Counted from the first letter of the stretch, positions 2,314 to 52,249 are shown. The stretch is 64,000 nucleotides of DNA from Oscillospiraceae bacterium (GCA_021199855.1 JAJQHD010000009.1:4287-68286); one strand, 5' to 3'. The notes: generated from the letters alone by a model not told the origin. Numbers and translations are program-made.

Positions 2314-4701
2314 TTACTCATTCTGTAGCATGTCCATCAGCTTGTACTTATTCAGCCCAAGCTTCGAGACGTAGCAGACCACGAACACTATTACAAACAG
2401 TGCCAGCGAGATAAGAAGCATTGTCCATGCTTCTATGTGGAAGCTTGCAAGCTCCTGGAGCTGGCTCCTGAAAGCTGTTTCAATCTCGGCAAGGCTCAGT
2501 GCTGACTCGCTGTCTGTAACGATTTTTAAGATGAGATACCCGAAGTATATTGCCCATCCGGCAACACTCGCAATAGCTCCGCGGATGATAGAGGCTACAA
2601 GCAGTCTGGTGTTTCTCTGCTTGCGGGACATTCCGAGAGCCTGCAGGATGCCGTATTTCTTCTTTTCCCGCTCCGTTTCAAGTCTGATGGTACTCGCGAG
2701 AATCAGAAGCGTTATGAACATGATGCACCCGCCGCTCACCCAGAACATGATAAGGGTCTGGAGATATTCACGTGCTTTGGATGAGTTTTCGGCTCTGTTG
2801 TTCATTGTAATCATCAGGGAATTTGCGTTCATTATCTTTGTGACAGCTTTGTCGGTCGAGAGATATTCGGCATTCATGTCGGTGAAAACGAGAACAGTCG
2901 TGAATCCAGCCGTGTCTCCGGCTGTGTAGGACGTTCCCCACATTGTGCCCTCTGGAAGAGCATCCAGAACCTTCTGCACGAACGCTGTAGAGCAGACTAT
3001 GTCATAGGTTTCGGGATAAAGGCTGTAGTTATAGCCAAGCCCTGATGAGCGGTAGTAGTCGCTCACTCCGCCGACAGTGGTTGTGAATTCTGTTCCAGAA
3101 ATAGTCAAAGTGATTTCATCGCCTGCCGCTGGGACTACCGATTTCGAATCGGTTGTGACCTTCATAAGAATAATGCTATCGCCCGAGTTGAAGCTCTCAA
3201 GGTCGGTGCAGGTGAAGTCTATCATCCCTTTCCAGCTGTCGGCTGAATCGACGACATAGACTGAAACCTCCTGAGCTTCGACTGAATCAGTTGTAAGGGA
3301 AGCCGATTGCTCAGAAAATCCCCATACTCCCGAAACTCCCGGAACAGCGGCAAGCTCACTGATGACATCATCCCCAAGATGCTGACCGGAAAAACTCAGG
3401 GTGTTCATAGCATAGTAGGAATATGTGGTTGTGTAGTATGTATAGTCAAAATACGGATCGAGCGAAAAGATGGTCGTGAAGACAACTGCCGAGCAGAAGA
3501 CAACACACATCGCTATAATCAAGCCTTTCTGGAATCTGCGGGAGAACTTTTGTTTTCCAACCTGCATTTCCATCCTGCCGGTAAGCGGAGTTGCGATGGA
3601 AATCTGGAACATAATCATCTTGACTATAAGAGTTCCCAGAATCCAGAGGAGTAAGAACATACTAAGATTCTTCCACGGAATACTCACTATAATTGCAATA
3701 GAGCCGGAGAAGACGCTTACCCTCAGCAAAATCCAGATGCCGATTGCACCGACAACAATTCCCGCAAGGAGAGATGGGATGCAGAGTATCAGCGTTTCAA
3801 CGGTCACCAAAAGCCTTATCTGTCCCTTGGATGCTCCAAGGCTTCTGAGCCGTACTGTTCTTCTTATGTCCGACTGCATCTGGAGGATATAGACAACCAC
3901 AATCGCTAAGATCGCAACTGCAAAGATAAGCCAGATGTAAACAGAGTTGAATTCCGCCTCGCTGTGATCCTGATAGGCATAGGAATTGAGCTTGACCTGC
4001 TTTCTGCTTGAGGCTACGTTTGAAGCCCTCGATTCCGAAAGATATGTATTGACTTCATCCGAAACGGTGTCCTCCATGCCGCTGGTGACGGTGAAGAAGT
4101 AGGAGACACTCGGAGTGACACCGTCAAAAATAGCCTCTGCGTCCTCTTCAGTTATAATTGCGCTGTTCAGAGTGTCGGTATAGTCCCAGAGGGTGGTGTA
4201 GGTTGAAATTACACCGGTCAGGGTGAAATTATGATAGATTATTTTATCATCGGATATTGTTATCGGCAGGGTGATTGTCTCTCCGATGGTGTAATCATAG
4301 CCGAGCTTATTGAGCACAGCCACTTCGACAGCAATCTCTCCGCTGTTCTCGGGAAGAGTTCCTTCCTCCAGATGGATTCCCATTTCAACGAATGCATCAT
4401 CGACCGTTCCGATTCCCTTGCCATTTACGGTGCCATATGTGACACTCTCGCCAACCTCATCAGCCCATTCAGTCGATTCAAGATACTCCGCGTCTCCATC
4501 CTGACCATAAACAATAGAGCCGTACCATGAGCCATAGATCGAGAAGCGATACTCCCGATTGGTCATCGCAATGCTGTTGGTGTAGCTTAGTAGCATGACA
4601 GCAAACGCAAACGTCACCATGAGTACAAGCACTATGAGAAGATTCTTCTTCCGCTTCCTCCATAAGCCCTGCACTGAAAGCTCAAAGATTGTTTTCAGCA
4701 T
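2314..4701 (-). CDS. FtsX-family ABC permease, double-FtsX type (paralog A, 795 aa)
   Basis: N-terminal TM helix after a basic RKRKK patch, a large extracytoplasmic domain, two TM bundles each with an FtsX-type ...G..KGQIR.../...LQALGMSRKQR... loop. Homologous to the ORFs at 4708 and 8919-11507. Confidence 0.9.
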   Translation of the reverse strand: MLKTIFELSVQGLWRKRKKNLLIVLVLMVTFAFAVMLLSYTNSIAMTNREYRFSIYGSWYGSIVYGQDGDAEYLESTEWADEVGESVTYGTVNGKGIGTVDDAFVEMGIHLEEGTLPENSGEIAVEVAVLNKLGYDYTIGETITLPITISDDKIIYHNFTLTGVISTYTTLWDYTDTLNSAIITEEDAEAIFDGVTPSVSYFFTVTSGMEDTVSDEVNTYLSESRASNVASSRKQVKLNSYAYQDHSEAEFNSVYIWLIFAVAILAIVVVYILQMQSDIRRTVRLRSLGASKGQIRLLVTVETLILCIPSLLAGIVVGAIGIWILLRVSVFSGSIAIIVSIPWKNLSMFLLLWILGTLIVKMIMFQISIATPLTGRMEMQVGKQKFSRRFQKGLIIAMCVVFCSAVVFTTIFSLDPYFDYTYYTTTYSYYAMNTLSFSGQHLGDDVISELAAVPGVSGVWGFSEQSASLTTDSVEAQEVSVYVVDSADSWKGMIDFTCTDLESFNSGDSIILMKVTTDSKSVVPAAGDEITLTISGTEFTTTVGGVSDYYRSSGLGYNYSLYPETYDIVCSTAFVQKVLDALPEGTMWGTSYTAGDTAGFTTVLVFTDMNAEYLSTDKAVTKIMNANSLMITMNNRAENSSKAREYLQTLIMFWVSGGCIMFITLLILASTIRLETEREKKKYGILQALGMSRKQRNTRLLVASIIRGAIASVAGWAIYFGYLILKIVTDSESALSLAEIETAFRSQLQELASFHIEAWTMLLISLALFVIVFVVCYVSKLGLNKYKLMDMLQNE

Positions 4702-19284: not shown

Positions 19285-19313
19285 ATTATATACCCTACTG
19301 GGGTATTTGTCAA
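19285..19313 (-). promoter_or_regulatory. csoR-copA promoter with embedded CsoR operator 2
   Basis: On the minus strand, TTGACA (19313-19308), a 17-nt spacer, then TATAAT (19290-19285). The spacer holds ATACCC-TACTG-GGGTAT (19290-19306). Confidence 0.75.
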
Positions 19314-19339
19314 GAGCTTTCAGAAATTTTTTACGGGAC

Positions 19340-19368
19340 TTGACAAAGTCGTACCATGGTATTATAAT
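19340..19368 (+). promoter_or_regulatory. promoter of the DUF3990/HTH gene pair
   Basis: TTGACA (19340-19345), a 17-nt spacer, then TATAAT (19363-19368). Confidence 0.6.
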
Positions 19369-39575: not shown

Positions 39576-39940
39576 CTGCGAGTAAGCTATACGGCAGCGG
39601 ACACGTTCGTTTGCTATCGCAAGCGAGGTGGATGAGGAAAGTCCGAGCATCACAGAGCAAAACAGCTGATAACGTCAGCCGAGGGCGACCTTAGGGAAAG
39701 TGCAACAGAAATAAACCGCCGATTTTATATCGGTAAGGATGGAAAGGCGAGGCAAGAGCTCACCGGAACGTGGGAGACCACGTTGCCATGTAAACCCTGT
39801 TTGATGCAACACCGTTTGGAACGGAATACCAACGTCTGCTCGGCGGGTATTCTGTAATAGGTGGCTTGAACTCTTCGGCGACGAAGAGTCTAGATAGATT
39901 GCCGTACACGACAGAACTCGGCTTACAGGCTTAGTCGCAG
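39576..39940 (+). ncRNA. rnpB: RNase P RNA
   Basis: Conserved P4 strands GAGGAAAGTCCG (about 39634) and ACAGAACTCGGCTTACAG (about 39911). P1 pairing is CTGCGAGTAAGC / GCTTAGTCGCAG. ORF 39675..39992 is spurious. Confidence 0.85.
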
Positions 39941-40015
39941 AGATTGAATAATAACCCTTGGAAAAAGGAAAAATAAAAATATTATCCTGCATTCCTGCAG
40001 GAAACGGAGGCTTTT

Positions 40016-44918: not shown

Positions 44919-44978
44919 CATATAAATATGCAAAAAATTCCTCTTGACAAAGAGGAAAAGATGGCATATAATAATGAC

Positions 44979-45081
44979 ATGAGGAGACGAAACTGTTGCA
45001 GCAGTTTGGGGTTCAACCTCTAAAATTCAAGAACTTGAAGATTGACCGCCAACCGCTAGACTATGTTGCGGTTATTTCTTT
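44979..45081 (+). ncRNA. predicted antisense sRNA (type I antitoxin candidate 1)
   Basis: TTGACA (44944-44949), a 17-nt spacer, then TATAAT (44967-44972). Terminator AACCGC-N11-GCGGTT followed by ATTTCTTT (45051-45081). Antisense to the toxin 3' UTR and its last codons. Confidence 0.55.
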
Positions 45082-45158
45082 GCCTGGAAAACTCCGATGA
45101 CTCCGAAGATAACAACGGCGAGCAGATTAAGGAGTCCGAGAACTTCTAAAACTGACAC
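45072..45158 (-). CDS. 28-aa hydrophobic peptide (type I toxin candidate 1)
   Basis: GGAGGTG lies 5 nt before GTG 45158. Peptide MSVLEVLGLLNLLAVVIFGVIGVFQAKK, TAA at 45074-45072. Its own TTGACA-17-TATAAT promoter is at 45243-45215 on the minus strand. Confidence 0.55.
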   Translation of the reverse strand: MSVLEVLGLLNLLAVVIFGVIGVFQAKK

Positions 45159-45289
45159 GTTATCACCTCCTTCTAAAAAAGAAGAGGTTTACCATCACTC
45201 CTCATGTCATAAGCATTATATCACGACCAAAACATCTTGTCAATAAAAACCGGCAGAGCTTTCTCCGCCGGTTTTCTCGTTGGCATATT

Positions 45290-47293
45290 TTAGTTTGCAC
45301 TCACAATCCCATAATACGCCTCCGACGTAATCTTATACACGACAGTATACACCACGACCACAACCGCAAGGCACGCTGCAGTTACTCCCAGGAACAGCCA
45401 GGTATTCATGAAGCCGCACATCTTGAGCATTTGAATCATAATCGGCGAGGCGAAGGCGATATGCACCGCCGCCATCACGACCGGCAGGAGGAAGACCGAA
45501 AGCATCTGCGAATTGATGCTCTTTTTTATCTCCGCCCTGGTCATCCCGACCTTCTGCATTATCTCGAACCGTGAGACGTCCTCATAGCCCTCCGAAATCT
45601 GCTTGTAGTAGATGATGAGCACCGCCGAGAGGACGAACATCAGGCTCAGGAATATCCCGAGGAACAGGAGCCCACCGAACAGACCGTAGTAGTCGGAGCG
45701 GTTCGCGGCAAGACTGTCGCAGCTTATATAATAATTTATGCCTGTGTTATAAAGGGCAAACACTTCTTTTTCGAGTTCTACACCATGTCTGCCGAAATAT
45801 GATCTCTGTTCTGATTCGCTGAGATTAGTAACGTCAAAACCGTACCACCACATCCTGTAGATATAAATCTCGTTTCCCCTGTCGCCGAGCATCTCAAAAA
45901 TCGGGTTGAATACGTCCAGATTGTCGACGACGATAATGAGCATTCCGTAAATGGTGCGCTGAAGCGGGCAAAAAGTCGGATATTCTATCTCAGATTTGAC
46001 GGCGAAGGTGCCAAGCTTGTCGATATAAATTTCGGACATATTTCCGCTTTCAGAGTAGAGTAGAACCTCGCCGCTTCCGAGAGTTTCGCTCGAACCATTC
46101 AGCCGGTTATAGGTGTCTATATCGAAGACGCAGACCTCGACGTAGTCGTCATCCGTATAGAGATAATCGAGTGCAAGGTTACCATCGGTAAAAATACCGT
46201 TCGTCATGATGTATTCATATTCGAGCTCGTTTTCAATTTCAAGGTCGTCGTCTATCGCAAGGTTCTTGACAACCTCCTTCTGTTCATCGGTGACTTCTTT
46301 GTGAGTTCCAAATTGGACGATTAAATCTCTCGGATAGAAATCTTCGAGGATGTCCTCAATTCCCATCATAATGCTTGAAGTAGACGAGAGCATAACGAGA
46401 ACAGCGGTCAAAAGAATACAGATTGAGGCGAGACCTGCGCCGTTGCGTTTCATGCGGTAGGTCATCGACGAGACGGAGACAAAGTGATTCGGCTTGTAAT
46501 AGTAGCGCTTCGACTTCTGCATGATTTTGCACATCAGGACGCTTCCCGACATGAACAGCATATACGTCCCGACCATGACGAGAACGGCGGCTAAGAGAAA
46601 TCCCATCATCATCGCCATCGGGTTTTCAAGCGTCAGGGCGAGATAGTAGCTGAAGCCTAAGATGACAGCTCCGAGAAGACCGAAGAACCAGTTTGCCTTC
46701 GGCGGCTTTTCGCCCATATTCTCGCTCTTGAGAAGCTCAATCGGGTTCGTCAGACGCACTTTAAGCAGTGAGAAAACAAACAGGAGTAGAAATATTATCG
46801 CAAATAAGAGTGCCGTTTCGGGGATAGCCTGCCAGGCAAGCTCTATCGTGAATGTCACGTCTCCCGAAATGAGATGAACGAGCACCAGCTCCGCAAGCTT
46901 GTAGAGGATGATTCCGAGAACGATTCCGCCGACAATCGCAGTTCCGGCGGTGAAAACGTGTTCCCAGATGAGAATACGGGCGATGTTGTGCTTGCTCATT
47001 CCCAATACATTGTAAAGACCAAATTCTTTCTGCCTGCGTTTCATGAGAAATGAGTTCGTGTAGAAAAGAAATATCGCCGCAAAGAGGGCTATGACGCCTT
47101 TTCCGAGTTCGAGGAGCGACTGCGCCGCATCTCCGCCGGACATCAGTCTTATCACATCCGATTCCGAAAGGGAAGTGATTATAAAATAGAGCATCACCAT
47201 GCCGATGCAGGCTAAAATGTGTGGGATATAGAGCTGTCGGTTGCCCTTGATGCCGTTCATTGCAAGGCGACGGTACAGACCACGCTTTTTCAT
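45290..47293 (-). CDS. BceB-type ABC permease (10 TM helices, large extracellular domain)
   Basis: 667 aa with FtsX domains at both ends and a domain of about 200 aa between TM7 and TM8. Overlaps the ATPase gene stop. Confidence 0.85.
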   Translation of the reverse strand: MKKRGLYRRLAMNGIKGNRQLYIPHILACIGMVMLYFIITSLSESDVIRLMSGGDAAQSLLELGKGVIALFAAIFLFYTNSFLMKRRQKEFGLYNVLGMSKHNIARILIWEHVFTAGTAIVGGIVLGIILYKLAELVLVHLISGDVTFTIELAWQAIPETALLFAIIFLLLFVFSLLKVRLTNPIELLKSENMGEKPPKANWFFGLLGAVILGFSYYLALTLENPMAMMMGFLLAAVLVMVGTYMLFMSGSVLMCKIMQKSKRYYYKPNHFVSVSSMTYRMKRNGAGLASICILLTAVLVMLSSTSSIMMGIEDILEDFYPRDLIVQFGTHKEVTDEQKEVVKNLAIDDDLEIENELEYEYIMTNGIFTDGNLALDYLYTDDDYVEVCVFDIDTYNRLNGSSETLGSGEVLLYSESGNMSEIYIDKLGTFAVKSEIEYPTFCPLQRTIYGMLIIVVDNLDVFNPIFEMLGDRGNEIYIYRMWWYGFDVTNLSESEQRSYFGRHGVELEKEVFALYNTGINYYISCDSLAANRSDYYGLFGGLLFLGIFLSLMFVLSAVLIIYYKQISEGYEDVSRFEIMQKVGMTRAEIKKSINSQMLSVFLLPVVMAAVHIAFASPIMIQMLKMCGFMNTWLFLGVTAACLAVVVVVYTVVYKITSEAYYGIVSAN

Positions 47294-48054
47294 TCTCCGG
47301 CACCTCCCTTACTCAGCATGGTGAGGGTGTCGGAAATCTTCTGATAAAGCTGTTCGTCACTCTGTCCGCCGCGGTAGACCTGATGGAAAACGACGCCGTC
47401 CTTGATGAATAAGACCCTGTTCGCATGGCACGCCGCCTTGACCGAATGGGTGACCATAAGAATCGTCTGCCCACAGGAATTTACTTTCGAGAAGAGGTTT
47501 AAAAGCTCGTCGGTGGCACGGCTGTCGAGCGCACCCGTCGGCTCGTCCGCTAAAATAATTCTCGGTTCTGTCACGAGTGCCCTTGCAACCGCCGCCCTCT
47601 GCTTCTGACCGCCGGAGACTTCGTAGGGGTATTTCTTTAAAATGTCCGAAATCCCCAGTAGCTCCGCAATCGGTTCGAGCCGCTTGAACATCTCCTTATA
47701 GGACATTCCTGAAAGAACCAATGGCAAGTAGATATTGTCTTCAAGAGTGAAAGTGTCCAGCAGATTGAATTCCTGAAAGACGAAGCCCAAGTTATCCCGA
47801 CGGAAGGTCGCCATGTCCTGCTCGTGGACTTTAGAAATATCTTTTGCATCTAAGATTACCTGCCCGCCGGTTGGCTTGTCAAGGGCGGCAAGGATATTGA
47901 GAAGTGTCGTCTTTCCCGAGCCGCTTTCGCCCATGATGGCGACATATTCGCCCTGCTCAACCGAGAAATTGACGTTTTTGAGCGCCTCGACGCTAGCCCC
48001 TCCCATGCGGGAAGTATAGACTTTCTGCAAATTTTTAACTTGTAGTAGTGGCAT
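47290..48054 (-). CDS. BceA-type ABC ATP-binding protein
   Basis: GESGSGKTTLLN, VSGGQKQR and ILADEPTGALD. Confidence 0.95.
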   Translation of the reverse strand: MPLLQVKNLQKVYTSRMGGASVEALKNVNFSVEQGEYVAIMGESGSGKTTLLNILAALDKPTGGQVILDAKDISKVHEQDMATFRRDNLGFVFQEFNLLDTFTLEDNIYLPLVLSGMSYKEMFKRLEPIAELLGISDILKKYPYEVSGGQKQRAAVARALVTEPRIILADEPTGALDSRATDELLNLFSKVNSCGQTILMVTHSVKAACHANRVLFIKDGVVFHQVYRGGQSDEQLYQKISDTLTMLSKGGAGE

Positions 48055-48152
48055 AAGATTTCTCCTTTACTTTTGTTACCTCGATTATAGCAAAAGAAGA
48101 ACCCATGAATCCATCGATTTCCCTTACAGTTTTCTTACATTTTTGTAAGATT

Positions 48153-49061
48153 TCAATTTGCTTGGACGTGTTTTTTGGAGAGATTCAGCCGTATAGTCGT
48201 GCCCTTGCCGAGCTGAGATTCCGCCGAAATCTCATAACCCAAATCGTCGCAGATTCTCTTGCAGAGATAAAGTCCGATTCCGCTCGCCTTCTTGTCCGTC
48301 CTGCCGTTATAGCCGGTGAAGCCCTGGTCGAAAATACGGGGCAAATCGTCCCCGGCAATCCCGATTCCGGTGTCCTTTATTGCGAGAACCTGCCCGGGTT
48401 CCATGAAGATTGAAATGCTCCCAGACGGCGTGTATTTCAAGGCGTTTGATAGCACTTGTTCGATGACAAACGAGAGCCATTTTTCATCTGTAAGAACCGC
48501 CTCCCGCACCGGCTTGTAGATAAGTTGAATTTTGCGGGCAATAAATTCTCCCGAAAACTTCCTAACGCAGGACCTTATGATGCTATCTAAGTCGCACTCG
48601 GCAAAAACATAGTCGGTGCTCTCTGAGTCGAGCCGAAGATAGGTCATGACCATGTCGGCGTAGCTTTCGATTCGGTTGAGGTCTGCACCAAGCTTTCTGC
48701 TTAAAGCGCTGTCCTCGCCCTGCAAACTAAGACGCATACTGGCGATCGGCGTCTTAATCTGGTGCGCCCAGACACTGTAATAGTCCATTCTCTGCCGGGA
48801 TTTCGCCTTTTCCGAAGAAATCATCTCCGTCAGTCTCGAAATCTTATTTTCGAGTTCTGAAATCTTCTCACACTGCTTCTTATACTTTCTGTAATCGAGC
48901 GCAAGATAAGCAATTACCAACAGTAATCCCAGCCCTATTGGGTAAGCCACCGCCGCAATCGGAAGCCCATAAAGTGCAAAGCTCACACAGAGCATTGCAA
49001 AAATCAGGACGTAGAGTGCAAGAAATGTGATTTTTGATTTTATGTAATTCCAGAATTTCAT
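48153..49061 (-). CDS. intramembrane-sensing histidine kinase (BceS-like)
   Basis: Two N-terminal TM helices with almost no extracellular loop. H-box VWAHQIKTPI, plus N and G boxes (NALKYT, DTGIGI, GIGLYL). Confidence 0.9.
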   Translation of the reverse strand: MKFWNYIKSKITFLALYVLIFAMLCVSFALYGLPIAAVAYPIGLGLLLVIAYLALDYRKYKKQCEKISELENKISRLTEMISSEKAKSRQRMDYYSVWAHQIKTPIASMRLSLQGEDSALSRKLGADLNRIESYADMVMTYLRLDSESTDYVFAECDLDSIIRSCVRKFSGEFIARKIQLIYKPVREAVLTDEKWLSFVIEQVLSNALKYTPSGSISIFMEPGQVLAIKDTGIGIAGDDLPRIFDQGFTGYNGRTDKKASGIGLYLCKRICDDLGYEISAESQLGKGTTIRLNLSKKHVQAN

Positions 49062-49062
49062 G

Positions 49063-49767
49063 TCAGTCTCCCAGAGGTTGCGGGCGGATAATATCCGCCC
49101 CTACAGAATATCCGACGCCGTGCTTCGTAGTGATGAAATCTTCAAGTCCCAGAGCGTCCAGCTTGCGGCGAAGCCGATTGATATTGACGGTCAGGGTGTT
49201 GTCGTCGACGAAGCTGTCCGTTTCCCAGAGTCTCTGCATCAGCCTCTCCCGGGAAACGGTTTTGCCCTTGCTTTCAAGAAGCGTGAAGAGAATCCGGTAT
49301 TCGTTTTTGGTGAGGTCAATCTTTTGCCCGCCGAAAACTGCGCTCGAATCCTCAGTCCTGAGACTCAACCCACGGTGTGAGAGAACCGGGCTTTCGGTGT
49401 AGTTGTAGCTCCGGCGGAGAAGTGCCTGCACTTTCGCCGTCAGCACGCTCATGTCGAACGGCTTTGCGATGAAGTCGTCGGCACCCATGTTGACAGCCAT
49501 GACGATGTTTAAGTTGTCCGACGCCGACGAGATGAAGATAATCGGCACGTTTGAAATCTTGCGAATCTCCTCGCACCAGTGGTAGCCGTTGTAAAAGGGA
49601 AGCATTATGTCGAGAAGCACGAGCTGGGGCTGTACTTCTGCAAATTCTCCGACAATATCAGAGAACTTCGTCGCCACCCGGCACTCGAAGCCCCATTTTG
49701 TCAGCTCCGCCGCCACGCCCTCCGCAATGCTTCTGTCGTCCTCGGCTATATAGATTTTGTAAGTCAA
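49063..49767 (-). CDS. OmpR-family response regulator (BceR-like) with a repeat-encoded C-terminal tail
   Basis: Receiver domain (YIAEDD...LLDIMLP) plus winged helix (...TKHGVGYSV). The last ~12 codons (GADIIRPQPLGD) are encoded by the family B hairpin. Confidence 0.9.
   Translation of the reverse strand: MTYKIYIAEDDRSIAEGVAAELTKWGFECRVATKFSDIVGEFAEVQPQLVLLDIMLPFYNGYHWCEEIRKISNVPIIFISSASDNLNIVMAVNMGADDFIAKPFDMSVLTAKVQALLRRSYNYTESPVLSHRGLSLRTEDSSAVFGGQKIDLTKNEYRILFTLLESKGKTVSRERLMQRLWETDSFVDDNTLTVNINRLRRKLDALGLEDFITTKHGVGYSVGADIIRPQPLGD
49081..49104. repeat. family B hairpin copy inside the response-regulator 3' end
   Basis: CGGGCGGATAATATCCGCCCCTAC. Compare with 27124-27147 and 27077-27104. 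Confidence 0.8.
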
Positions 49768-50657
49768 ACTCTCACCCCCATAATTTTGTCAAAATACTCA
49801 AGAATCTCTTTCAGCTCCTGACAGTCCTCCGACTCCTTCACCTTTTCCTCATCCTTATAGTAAACAAACATCGAGTACTGGCAGAAGGCGGAGATGGTGA
49901 TGTCTTGCTGGAATTTCTGCCTGTCGACCGTGAACAGCGGATTTTTGCTCATTTCTTCGTAGTAGGTTCTGAGAAACGCCTTCGCAGATTCCGGGGAGAT
50001 GTAGCGCTTGCCATCCCCATAGCCGACGAATGAAAACCGCCCTAAATCCAAGAAATAGGGGAGAATGTCGGCATATGTCCAGTCGATGAGCCAGGCGGTC
50101 TTGCCGTCCAGGAGTGCGTTTATCGGCAGAAAATCGTCGTGGACAAGAGTCCGTGGTGCCGAAAAGAACCGGGCTTCGATTTTCTCAAAAATGCCGTCAC
50201 AGCCGGGAAAATAGTTTCGGGACTTCTCCCAGAACCGAAGGACTTTTCTTTCAAAATAGCTCCTGCAACCGTCCGGGTTGGTGCCGGTTCCGAGATAATA
50301 GCTCTGAATTTTTGCAAGCTCCCTGCCGACAAGCCCCGCTTCCTCGGGAGAACAGTCTCTCGAGTCCGACCCATCAATATACGGCATAGTCACCCAGCAG
50401 TCGTCACCGTTCTGAAAGCTGGAGAGAATCTCCGGCACCGAAAAGCTGTGTCCGGCAAAGTATTTCCCGAACTTTTCATTGTCCCGGTCGGATTTTTTGA
50501 GCACGAAGTTGTCATCAAGCAGAAACACATCATAAATCTTATTCAGCCGGCTGTCGACAAATCTCCGGACAGAATCCTCCCCGGAAACCCCGGCTTTCTC
50601 AAATACCGGCGCAAATTCAGCCCATTCTTCGGCAGTCAGCCTGCGGTTTTCGTTCAT
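49764..50657 (-). CDS. APH/choline-kinase-family phosphotransferase
   Basis: LVHDDFLPINALLD (HxDxxxxN catalytic loop) and LIDWTYAD. Its stop overlaps the response-regulator start. Confidence 0.8.
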   Translation of the reverse strand: MNENRRLTAEEWAEFAPVFEKAGVSGEDSVRRFVDSRLNKIYDVFLLDDNFVLKKSDRDNEKFGKYFAGHSFSVPEILSSFQNGDDCWVTMPYIDGSDSRDCSPEEAGLVGRELAKIQSYYLGTGTNPDGCRSYFERKVLRFWEKSRNYFPGCDGIFEKIEARFFSAPRTLVHDDFLPINALLDGKTAWLIDWTYADILPYFLDLGRFSFVGYGDGKRYISPESAKAFLRTYYEEMSKNPLFTVDRQKFQQDITISAFCQYSMFVYYKDEEKVKESEDCQELKEILEYFDKIMGVRV

Positions 50658-50733
50658 AGCGTGATTCTCCTATAGCTTTTGGAAGTCAAAATTTCCTCTT
50701 GACAAAGAGGAGAAAGTGTCATATAATAAAAGT

Positions 50734-50847
50734 AGCGAGAGGGTTGCCTGAACCGGTAATTCAGACAACAAGGTCACTCTCCGAACAATAATGTTATGAG
50801 AAAGTGGAGCTGTTTTTGACCGTCAGGTCAAGGACAGCTATTTCTTT
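50734..50847 (+). ncRNA. predicted antisense sRNA (type I antitoxin candidate 2)
   Basis: TTGACA (50699-50704), a 17-nt spacer, then TATAAT (50722-50727). Terminator AGCTGT..TGACC-GTCA-GGTCA..ACAGCT followed by ATTTCTTT (50808-50847). Confidence 0.55.
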
Positions 50848-50927
50848 GAGCTATTGCCGATGGTAATGCCCAAATTGATAGCCGAAATCAGCAAACCCAG
50901 TAGTAGAATCACTGTTGAAACGTCCAT
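50838..50927 (-). CDS. 29-aa hydrophobic peptide (type I toxin candidate 2)
   Basis: AAAGGAG RBS and ATG at 50927. Peptide MDVSTVILLLGLLISAINLGITIGNSSKK, TAG at 50840-50838. Its own TTGACA-17-TATAAT promoter is at 51007-50979 on the minus strand. Confidence 0.55.
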   Translation of the reverse strand: MDVSTVILLLGLLISAINLGITIGNSSKK

Positions 50928-51067
50928 GAGCATCACTCCTTTCCGTTCGGAAAAGGGTGACCGCCTCTCGCTATGCGTATTATATCATATCTCAAAAACC
51001 ATGTCAATAAAAATCGCACCATGCCATTTGGTGCGGTTTTTCATATTTTCTCTTGCATTTCCCCTGA

Positions 51068-52249
<1,182 letters not shown>

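Follow-up and report, generated by a model that had tools for sequence, protein, structure and literature searches.

The type I toxin-antitoxin (TA) pairs bsrH/as-bsrH, bsrE/SR5 and bsrG/SR4 of Bacillus subtilis each produce an antitoxin RNA that binds the toxin mRNA at its 3' end and promotes its decay, usually via RNase III (PMC6562991). The first encodes a toxin of 29 amino acids (aa) on a 285-nucleotide (nt) mRNA, and the second a 30-aa toxin on an mRNA of 255-260 nt (PMC6562991). In bsrG/SR4 and txpA/RatA, 3'-end overlap and RNase III-assisted decay are found together with a toxin Shine-Dalgarno (SD) sequence that is partly buried in structure (PMC3834814; PMC6562991). Here we describe module 2, a putative type I TA-like locus at positions 50687-51041 of a 64,000-nt stretch (the window) from an Oscillospiraceae bacterium (GCA_021199855.1, JAJQHD010000009.1:4287-68286), where it fills a gap of ~350 bases between genes. 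By analogy, its closest counterparts in geometry and size appear to be the 3'-overlapping systems of B. subtilis. We conclude that module 2 is probably a chromosomal type I TA-like locus of 3'-overlapping geometry, with a probability of roughly two in three. Judged from sequence, module 2 and its sister, module 1, are best placed as a new sequence family of the known 3'-overlapping type I TA systems, carried by uncultured gut Oscillospiraceae.

Module 2 resembles bsrH and bsrE in its 29-aa peptide, its predicted mRNA of ~286 nt and an antisense RNA that would cover the stop codon and 3' untranslated region (UTR). Unlike in those systems, the predicted antisense RNA is short (~115 nt, versus 163-200 nt) and its promoter sits within the toxin terminator; the locus also lies outside any prophage-like element, in an Oscillospiraceae lineage rather than in Bacilli. 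Similarity to BsrE and BsrH was assessed through Pfam and NCBIfam family models, which gave no such match at E<=10. With bsrG/SR4 and txpA/RatA, module 2 shares a predicted 3'-end overlap, an SD predicted to be buried and a hydrophobic helix followed by a tail of the SSQKKK type. SR4 binding raises SD sequestration, whereas modelling of module 2 predicts no change. BLASTP did not align the module 2 peptide with BsrG, and the module 1-like peptide gave only a 17-residue C-terminal match to it (pairwise E=0.013).

The type I TA modules of Clostridioides difficile (CD2517.1-RCd8, CD0956.2-RCd10 and others) are the only ones experimentally studied in the class Clostridia (PMC6563280). They consist of convergent overlapping genes, located in prophages or beside CRISPR arrays and using Sigma-B promoters, with previously unannotated toxins of 34-59 aa whose N-terminal part is hydrophobic and whose tail is rich in Lys (PMC6563280). 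The hydrophobic helix and Lys-Lys tail of module 2 match this type I toxin signature (PMC6563280). Compared by description, module 2 differs in its 29-aa length, its consensus sigma-A promoters and its chromosomal position beside tgt. A full-text literature search linking type I TA with Oscillospiraceae returned nothing relevant.

In hok/sok of plasmid R1 and aapA1/IsoA1 of Helicobacter pylori, a long-distance 5'-3' interaction and SD sequestration jointly lock the full-length toxin mRNA; the antitoxin targets the 5' leader, and the mRNA becomes active on 3' trimming. Long-distance 5'-3' pairing and SD sequestration are likewise predicted for module 2, but its antisense RNA is predicted to target the 3' strand of the lock itself. 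The par locus (Fst/RNA II) of Enterococcus faecalis pAD1 also has convergent transcripts, a one-helix toxin of ~30 aa and a translation-blocking 5' structure. Its two RNAs share one bidirectional terminator and pair via 5' direct repeats, in contrast to the separate terminators and continuous complementarity of module 2. The profile hidden Markov models of Fst/Ldr, Hok/Gef, TisB, Hol-Tox and other toxins in Pfam and NCBIfam were not matched. Type I TA loci are nearly invisible to homology searches, and the present family adds a putative, sequence-novel, multi-copy example with predicted RNA partners.

Architecture of the two modules

All elements that the original prediction had listed for module 2 were found in place. 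Together with the predicted transcripts and structures, its features are:

50979-51007, minus strand: toxin promoter, TTGACA-17-TATAAT with a TG extended -10, consensus score 12/12; conserved in homologues
50687-50972, minus strand: predicted toxin mRNA, ~286 nt, its start inferred 7 nt past the -10
50964-50972, minus strand: 5' strand of the predicted closing helix, AGCGAGAGG, the same as the first bases of the antisense RNA; paired in the minimum free energy (MFE) and consensus folds
50961-50932, minus strand: leader hairpin of 12 pairs in two segments (-14.2 kcal/mol, z=-3.1), which pairs the GGAG of the SD
50939-50936, minus strand: GGAG SD, 8 nt upstream of the start codon
50838-50927, minus strand: toxin open reading frame (ORF), ATG at 50927, TAG stop at 50840-50838, 29 codons, encoding MDVSTVILLLGLLISAINLGITIGNSSKK
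50734-50742, minus strand: 3' strand of the closing helix, CCUCUCGCU, complement of the antisense RNA 5' end
50711-50694, minus strand: toxin terminator hairpin UCCUCUUUGUCAAGAGGA, whose loop is the -35 of the antisense promoter
50699-50727, plus strand: antisense (antitoxin) promoter, TTGACA-17-TATAAT, 12/12
50734-50848, plus strand: predicted antisense RNA, ~115 nt, conserved in module 2-like loci
50808-50848, plus strand: antisense terminator, a 14-bp hairpin (50808-50839) followed by AUUUCUUUG; -22.5 kcal/mol, z=-5.1
51009-51041, both strands: hairpin flanked by an A-run and a T-run, directly upstream of the toxin promoter; -12.9 kcal/mol

The perfect minus-strand promoter (51007-50979), the ATG at 50927 with its SD and 29-aa frame, and the plus-strand unit of ~115 nt ending in a strong terminator over the last toxin codons thus stand as first described. 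The terminator hairpin at 50694-50711 is present as well, with the plus-strand -35 in its loop, though it is weak. The leader hairpin said to occlude the SD is real, but it is larger than had been drawn.

Perfect TTGACA-17-TATAAT promoters occur six times in the window and in none of 100 shuffles; four of the six lie within the two modules. The antisense terminator overlaps the last toxin codons, AAG AAA TAG, and its U-tract complements Lys-Lys-stop. Since the same tract complements AAG-AAA-TAG/TAA, the Lys-Lys-stop end would be doubly constrained.

Module 1 has the layout of module 2, as had been proposed. Its features are:

44938-45271, minus strand: module 1
45243-45215, minus strand: toxin promoter
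45158 to 45072, minus strand: ORF with GTG start, encoding MSVLEVLGLLNLLAVVIFGVIGVFQAKK
44957-44938, minus strand: toxin terminator
44944-44972, plus strand: antisense promoter
~44979-45082, plus strand: antisense RNA

The 18-nt palindrome that forms the terminator and -35 of module 2 has an exact copy in module 1 (44939-44956), and the A-run/T-run hairpins outside the two toxin promoters (~45250-45271 and 51009-51041) both fold. Module 2 had been called a diverged paralog of module 1. The common architecture holds, but paralogy is not demonstrated: BLASTP found no alignment between the two peptides, and the transcribed cores align only marginally above shuffles (z=2.2). Common ancestry of the cores is unproven.

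Homologues, coding constraint and genomic slots

A genome scan (one genome per species) with the pattern CTCTTGACAAAGAG-N12-TATAAT returned at least 119 loci. By blastn over the whole module, at least 11 of the matches listed are true homologous loci, a minimum for the family; the genome of the window itself is absent from the matches listed. The homologues all come from metagenome-assembled genomes (MAGs) of Oscillospiraceae or "Ruminococcus sp.", with 2-3 copies per MAG. Among the matches listed, nine are module 1-like, hereafter type 1 (L009, L063, L070, L076, L077, L102, L104, L108 and L115), and two are module 2-like, hereafter type 2: L087, 85% identical over 378 nt, and L020, 88% identical over 296 nt.

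Two further type-2 copies were found independently of the promoter motif. When 1.84 billion representative proteins were searched by phmmer with the window peptide, only two clusters came up, neither of which carries a name: a mis-started 49-aa call (L123) and a 47-aa stop-loss variant (L124). Each lies within a complete type-2 module with a perfect antisense promoter. The toxin mRNA is homologous in L087, L020, L123 and L124, and the antisense terminator stem is retained in L087 and L124 despite base changes. Intact homologues retain the ORF length, the SD, both promoters and both terminators. A metagenome scan with the architecture pattern TGATAYAAT-N255-285-CTCTTTGTCAAGAG gave only two chance marine matches, and viral contigs contained no match to three DNA patterns (the architecture pattern and two type-specific ones).

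The 29-aa peptide has a hydrophobic core at residues 6-23 and an SSKK tail; the best 17-residue Kyte-Doolittle window is 2.0-2.9 across family members, and the length of 29 aa is retained in L087, L020 and L123. Variable columns fall at codon positions 1, 2 and 3 in the proportions 4/2/12 for type 1 (8 ORFs) and 4/4/14 for type 2 (3 ORFs), so that position 3 holds 26 of 40 in the two types combined (binomial p=4e-5). The ORF length, SD and start codon are also conserved across loci. Because of this third-position bias and conservation, the ORF appears to be under coding constraint, and by this measure the 29-codon frame is a real, selected coding sequence. Ten sequences, comprising the correctly bounded peptides and 2 longer start variants of the window ORF, were all absent from a collection of 15 billion proteins, and no small gene was called on an identical Logan contig. 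The peptides with their correct boundaries are thus recorded by no gene caller or database.

The gene tgt is 96-99% identical across six loci, and in each of them exactly one module adjoins it. The adjoining module is of type 1 in L076, L115, L009, L108 and L077, and of type 2 in L087 and the window. Between the window and the loci bearing type 1, the flanks and promoters are 73-97% identical, and identity drops to background between the predicted transcription starts. On this comparison, the part exchanged at the tgt slot is the transcribed core, and the ends that bear the promoters are conserved. The two types recur at two other sites as well. Between thrB, whose product is a homoserine-kinase-like GHMP kinase, and a restriction-modification gene of the MmeI family, L102 and L104 hold type 1, and L123 and L020 hold type 2, in opposite orientation. 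Beside a surface-protein gene, type 1 is found in L070 and type 2 in L124. Some sites that hold both module types border resistance or restriction islets.

In the window, modules 1 and 2 bracket a 5.4-kb block (45290-50657) that encodes an FtsX permease, an ABC ATPase, a histidine kinase, a response regulator and an APH-family phosphotransferase. L076 and L115 are without this block, and in them tgt, one module, a 117-aa gene and a major facilitator superfamily (MFS) gene are contiguous. The block has the appearance of an islet with the two modules as its borders. In 50657-50711, no promoter belonging to the APH gene itself was seen, and the toxin terminator upstream of the gene is weak, so that it may be transcribed in part by read-through from the toxin promoter. 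A general role of the module as a leader or attenuator for APH was rejected, as several other copies have no co-directional gene after the module. The hairpin at 51009-51041 is conserved beside tgt in L076, L087, L108 and L115, irrespective of module type, and looks like a bidirectional terminator or insulator that separates the module from the tgt promoter.

Several copies have decayed. A shared hairpin-forming insertion of 25-26 nt, TCAAGTCAATGGCACAGTGACTTGT, frameshifts the type-1 ORF in two MAGs (L063 2185-2525 and L070 910-1242), and the antisense promoter is still perfect in both. L063 also carries a truncated type-2 relic directly after the APH gene (3613-3762), in which the promoter, the SD, the start codon and the larger part of the 3' UTR are missing and the 3' half of the ORF and an antisense-promoter-like site persist. 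In L124 (170-313), the TAG stop has become TGG and the peptide is extended to 47 aa; its antisense terminator stem is preserved through altered bases, among them a double change from U-A to G-U. The frameshift, stop loss and truncated relic fit a toxin gene that is dispensable or deleterious. In L123, the toxin 3' UTR carries an inserted hairpin of 26 nt, GAAGTTACAAATGAAGTTTGTAACTTC, at 2205-2245, in place of the closing helix's 3' strand.

Predicted RNA structures and a proposed mechanism

Both predicted RNAs of module 2 fold more stably than shuffled sequences: the toxin mRNA has an MFE of -101.3 kcal/mol (z=-6.6) and the antisense RNA one of -40.4 kcal/mol (z=-4.1). The whole antisense RNA complements the toxin mRNA at nt 125-239, a segment that takes in the final 3 sense codons, the stop and the greater part of the 3' UTR. 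The two RNAs also begin with a common block, (U)AGCGAGAGG of 9-10 nt in type 2 and (U)GACAUGAGGAG of 7-13 nt in type 1 (also written as GACATGAGGAG). This block is present in 12 of 13 copies and its sequence differs between the types; within a module, the promoter spacers and the bases from the -10 to the block differ between the two promoters. Because both RNAs start with the same block, the 5' end of the toxin mRNA complements its own 3' UTR. The alignment consensus folds of type 1 and type 2 each contain the resulting 5'-3' closing helix.

In modelled ensembles, the SD was paired in the free mRNA, in the antisense-blocked mRNA and in nascent fragments of 60-140 nt. Blocking the antisense site of the window's type-2 mRNA raised the modelled probability that the first 10 nt are unpaired from 0.10 to 0.42. 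The mRNA structure is therefore predicted to prevent premature toxin translation by SD pairing and the closing helix. An SR4-like mechanism, in which the antisense RNA tightens SD sequestration through an SD-mimic in the 3' UTR, was also considered and rejected, as SD pairing was unchanged in the ensemble modelling. Modelled cognate duplexes (-200 to -228 kcal/mol; -228 for module 2) are far more stable than non-cognate ones (-50 to -61 kcal/mol), so little cross-talk is expected between modules 1 and 2.

A mechanism consistent with these predictions can be proposed. The strong sigma-A promoter on the minus strand would make an mRNA of ~286 nt for a 29-residue, single-helix membrane peptide. 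This mRNA would be translationally silent, with its SD held in the 12-bp leader hairpin and its first 9 nt paired with a segment of the 3' UTR. The opposite promoter would make the ~115-nt antisense RNA, complementary to the 3' UTR including the 3' strand of the closing helix. Binding of the antisense RNA would create a long duplex that may be cut by RNase III, and would displace the 5' end of the mRNA from the closing helix and expose it to 5'-dependent RNases. Through duplex cleavage and 5' end exposure, the toxin mRNA is proposed to be destroyed before activation. If the antisense RNA were lost, the stable folded mRNA would persist and could eventually be translated into a membrane-damaging peptide. 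It is because SD pairing is unchanged by the antisense RNA in the models that duplex-triggered decay and opening of the 5'-3' lock are proposed.

Strand displacement would thus couple duplex formation to exposure of the 5' end, and we know of no description of this mode for 3'-overlapping Gram-positive systems. Taken jointly, the proposal that the antisense RNA competes for the 3' strand of the lock, and that the cores are exchangeable cassettes between inverted consensus promoters, is tentative and in our estimate unlikely to be right as a whole. Ideas on how such loci are regulated and spread may be drawn from their identical 5' ends and from the exchange of cores between promoters. Compact toxin/antisense pairs of this kind could be used as counter-selection or RNA-device parts.

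Weighing the toxin-antitoxin reading

The view of module 2 as a type I TA-like module of an evolving family, put forward in the original prediction, gains support from the intact homologues, the third-position bias and the inactivated copies. Several observations weigh against it. First, the toxin promoter equals the antisense promoter in quality and has an extended -10 in addition, and the toxin terminator is weak (7 bp, -8.2 kcal/mol, 4 U), so that transcription may read through into the APH gene. Second, the models predict that the SD hairpin persists whether the antisense RNA is present or not, which leaves translation of the toxin unexplained. Third, double changes are few, at 1 of the 72 pairs predicted for type 1 and 4 of the 93 for type 2, and in L123, a copy of type 2, a hairpin insertion has removed most of the closing helix. 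Structural covariation is thus thin within types, because the sequences are close, and support for the closing helix comes mainly from the change of both strands between types.

Fourth, comparisons with known families returned little. There was no Pfam family match at E<=10 (HOK_GEF and Fst included), and the only NCBIfam hit was YnaM/YnfT at E=0.38 (11 bits against a cut-off of 35). No Rfam covariance model reached its gathering score in the module regions, where only noise at E>=0.09 was seen. A tblastn search of a phage collection with both peptides gave no match; the same search recovered BsrG at 100% identity on SPbeta and so suits such peptides. Blastn of the module against plasmid and phage collections gave no match either. 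Finally, most of the matches listed for CTCTTGACAAAGAG-N12-TATAAT are ordinary promoters of tRNA, rRNA and protein genes in many phyla, and the promoter-in-palindrome motif is therefore not specific to the modules. The case had been said to weaken if the shared parts were a common cassette unrelated to small ORFs. The promoter motif is indeed generic, but a convergent small hydrophobic ORF with an SD accompanies every intact family copy and none of the 111 non-family promoter matches listed.

The most serious alternative, though we think it rather unlikely, is a genuine small membrane-protein gene under cis-antisense control, with a benign peptide whose level is tuned by the antisense RNA. Coding constraint and an antisense layout alone do not show toxicity, no link of the module to mobile elements was found, and BsrE-like peptides are toxic only when overexpressed (PMC6562991). 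Against a benign peptide, the modules are present in multiple copies per genome, the types are interchangeable at the same sites, and several inactivated copies have kept an intact antisense promoter. Translation is also predicted to be doubly blocked, by the SD hairpin and by the closed ends, and a hydrophobic helix with a Lys-Lys tail is a type I toxin signature (PMC6563280). We favor the type I TA-like reading.

It is very improbable that the product is a secreted leaderless bacteriocin or a peptide like the phenol-soluble modulins (PSMs), for which the FtsX/ABC transporter and two-component system would provide export, immunity or sensing. The arrangement in the window would agree with this, since module 1 directly follows the block of FtsX permease, ABC ATPase, kinase and regulator and module 2 lies at its other end. 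However, in L076 and L115 module 1 lies between tgt and the 117-aa gene with no transporter or two-component system nearby, and other copies adjoin thrB/MmeI or the surface-protein gene. The peptides are nearly uncharged except for the Lys-Lys tail. Nor are bacteriocin operons known for convergent antisense RNAs and sequestered SDs.

That there is no gene at all, and that promoters, terminators and insulators serve APH and tgt around a 29-codon ORF arising by chance, is scarcely credible. The promoter-in-hairpin motif is common at unrelated promoters, as this account would have it, and with so weak a toxin terminator APH would come under the minus-strand promoter. The third-position bias in both ORF types (p=4e-5) and the conserved ORF length, SD and start codon argue against chance, and at several loci there is no co-directional gene after the module to be served. 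On the other side, two terminators seal the plus-strand RNA off from tgt, which has its own promoter-like site. Lastly, the annotated plus-strand ORF at 50854-51099 is, despite its 81 open codons from a TTG start, spurious on comparison with the homologous loci and of negligible likelihood as the real gene of the interval: it has in-frame stops in L087 and L020, making it the shadow ORF it had been taken for, it runs antisense through the toxin promoter and upstream terminator, and it should be removed from the annotation.

Some minor observations concern promoters elsewhere. In eight of the 111 unrelated matches listed, the palindrome around the -35 is longer by at least 4 bp (~0.4 expected). 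These extended-palindrome promoters include L031, L032, L035, L043, L060 and L110, and most are flanked by A-runs and T-runs; the nesting of promoters in terminator-like hairpins may recur in Clostridia. The window also contains a bacterial class A RNase P RNA at 39579-39941 (258 bits), its sole match at an Rfam gathering score. The remaining two of the six perfect promoters in the window form a back-to-back divergent pair at 19285-19368. This pair was ruled out as a third module and is a csoR/copA control region, in which the minus-strand promoter lies ahead of a 99-aa gene resembling csoR and a gene for a P-type ATPase of the copA type. The spacer of that promoter holds the palindrome ATACCCTACTGGGGTAT, which is probably a repressor operator.

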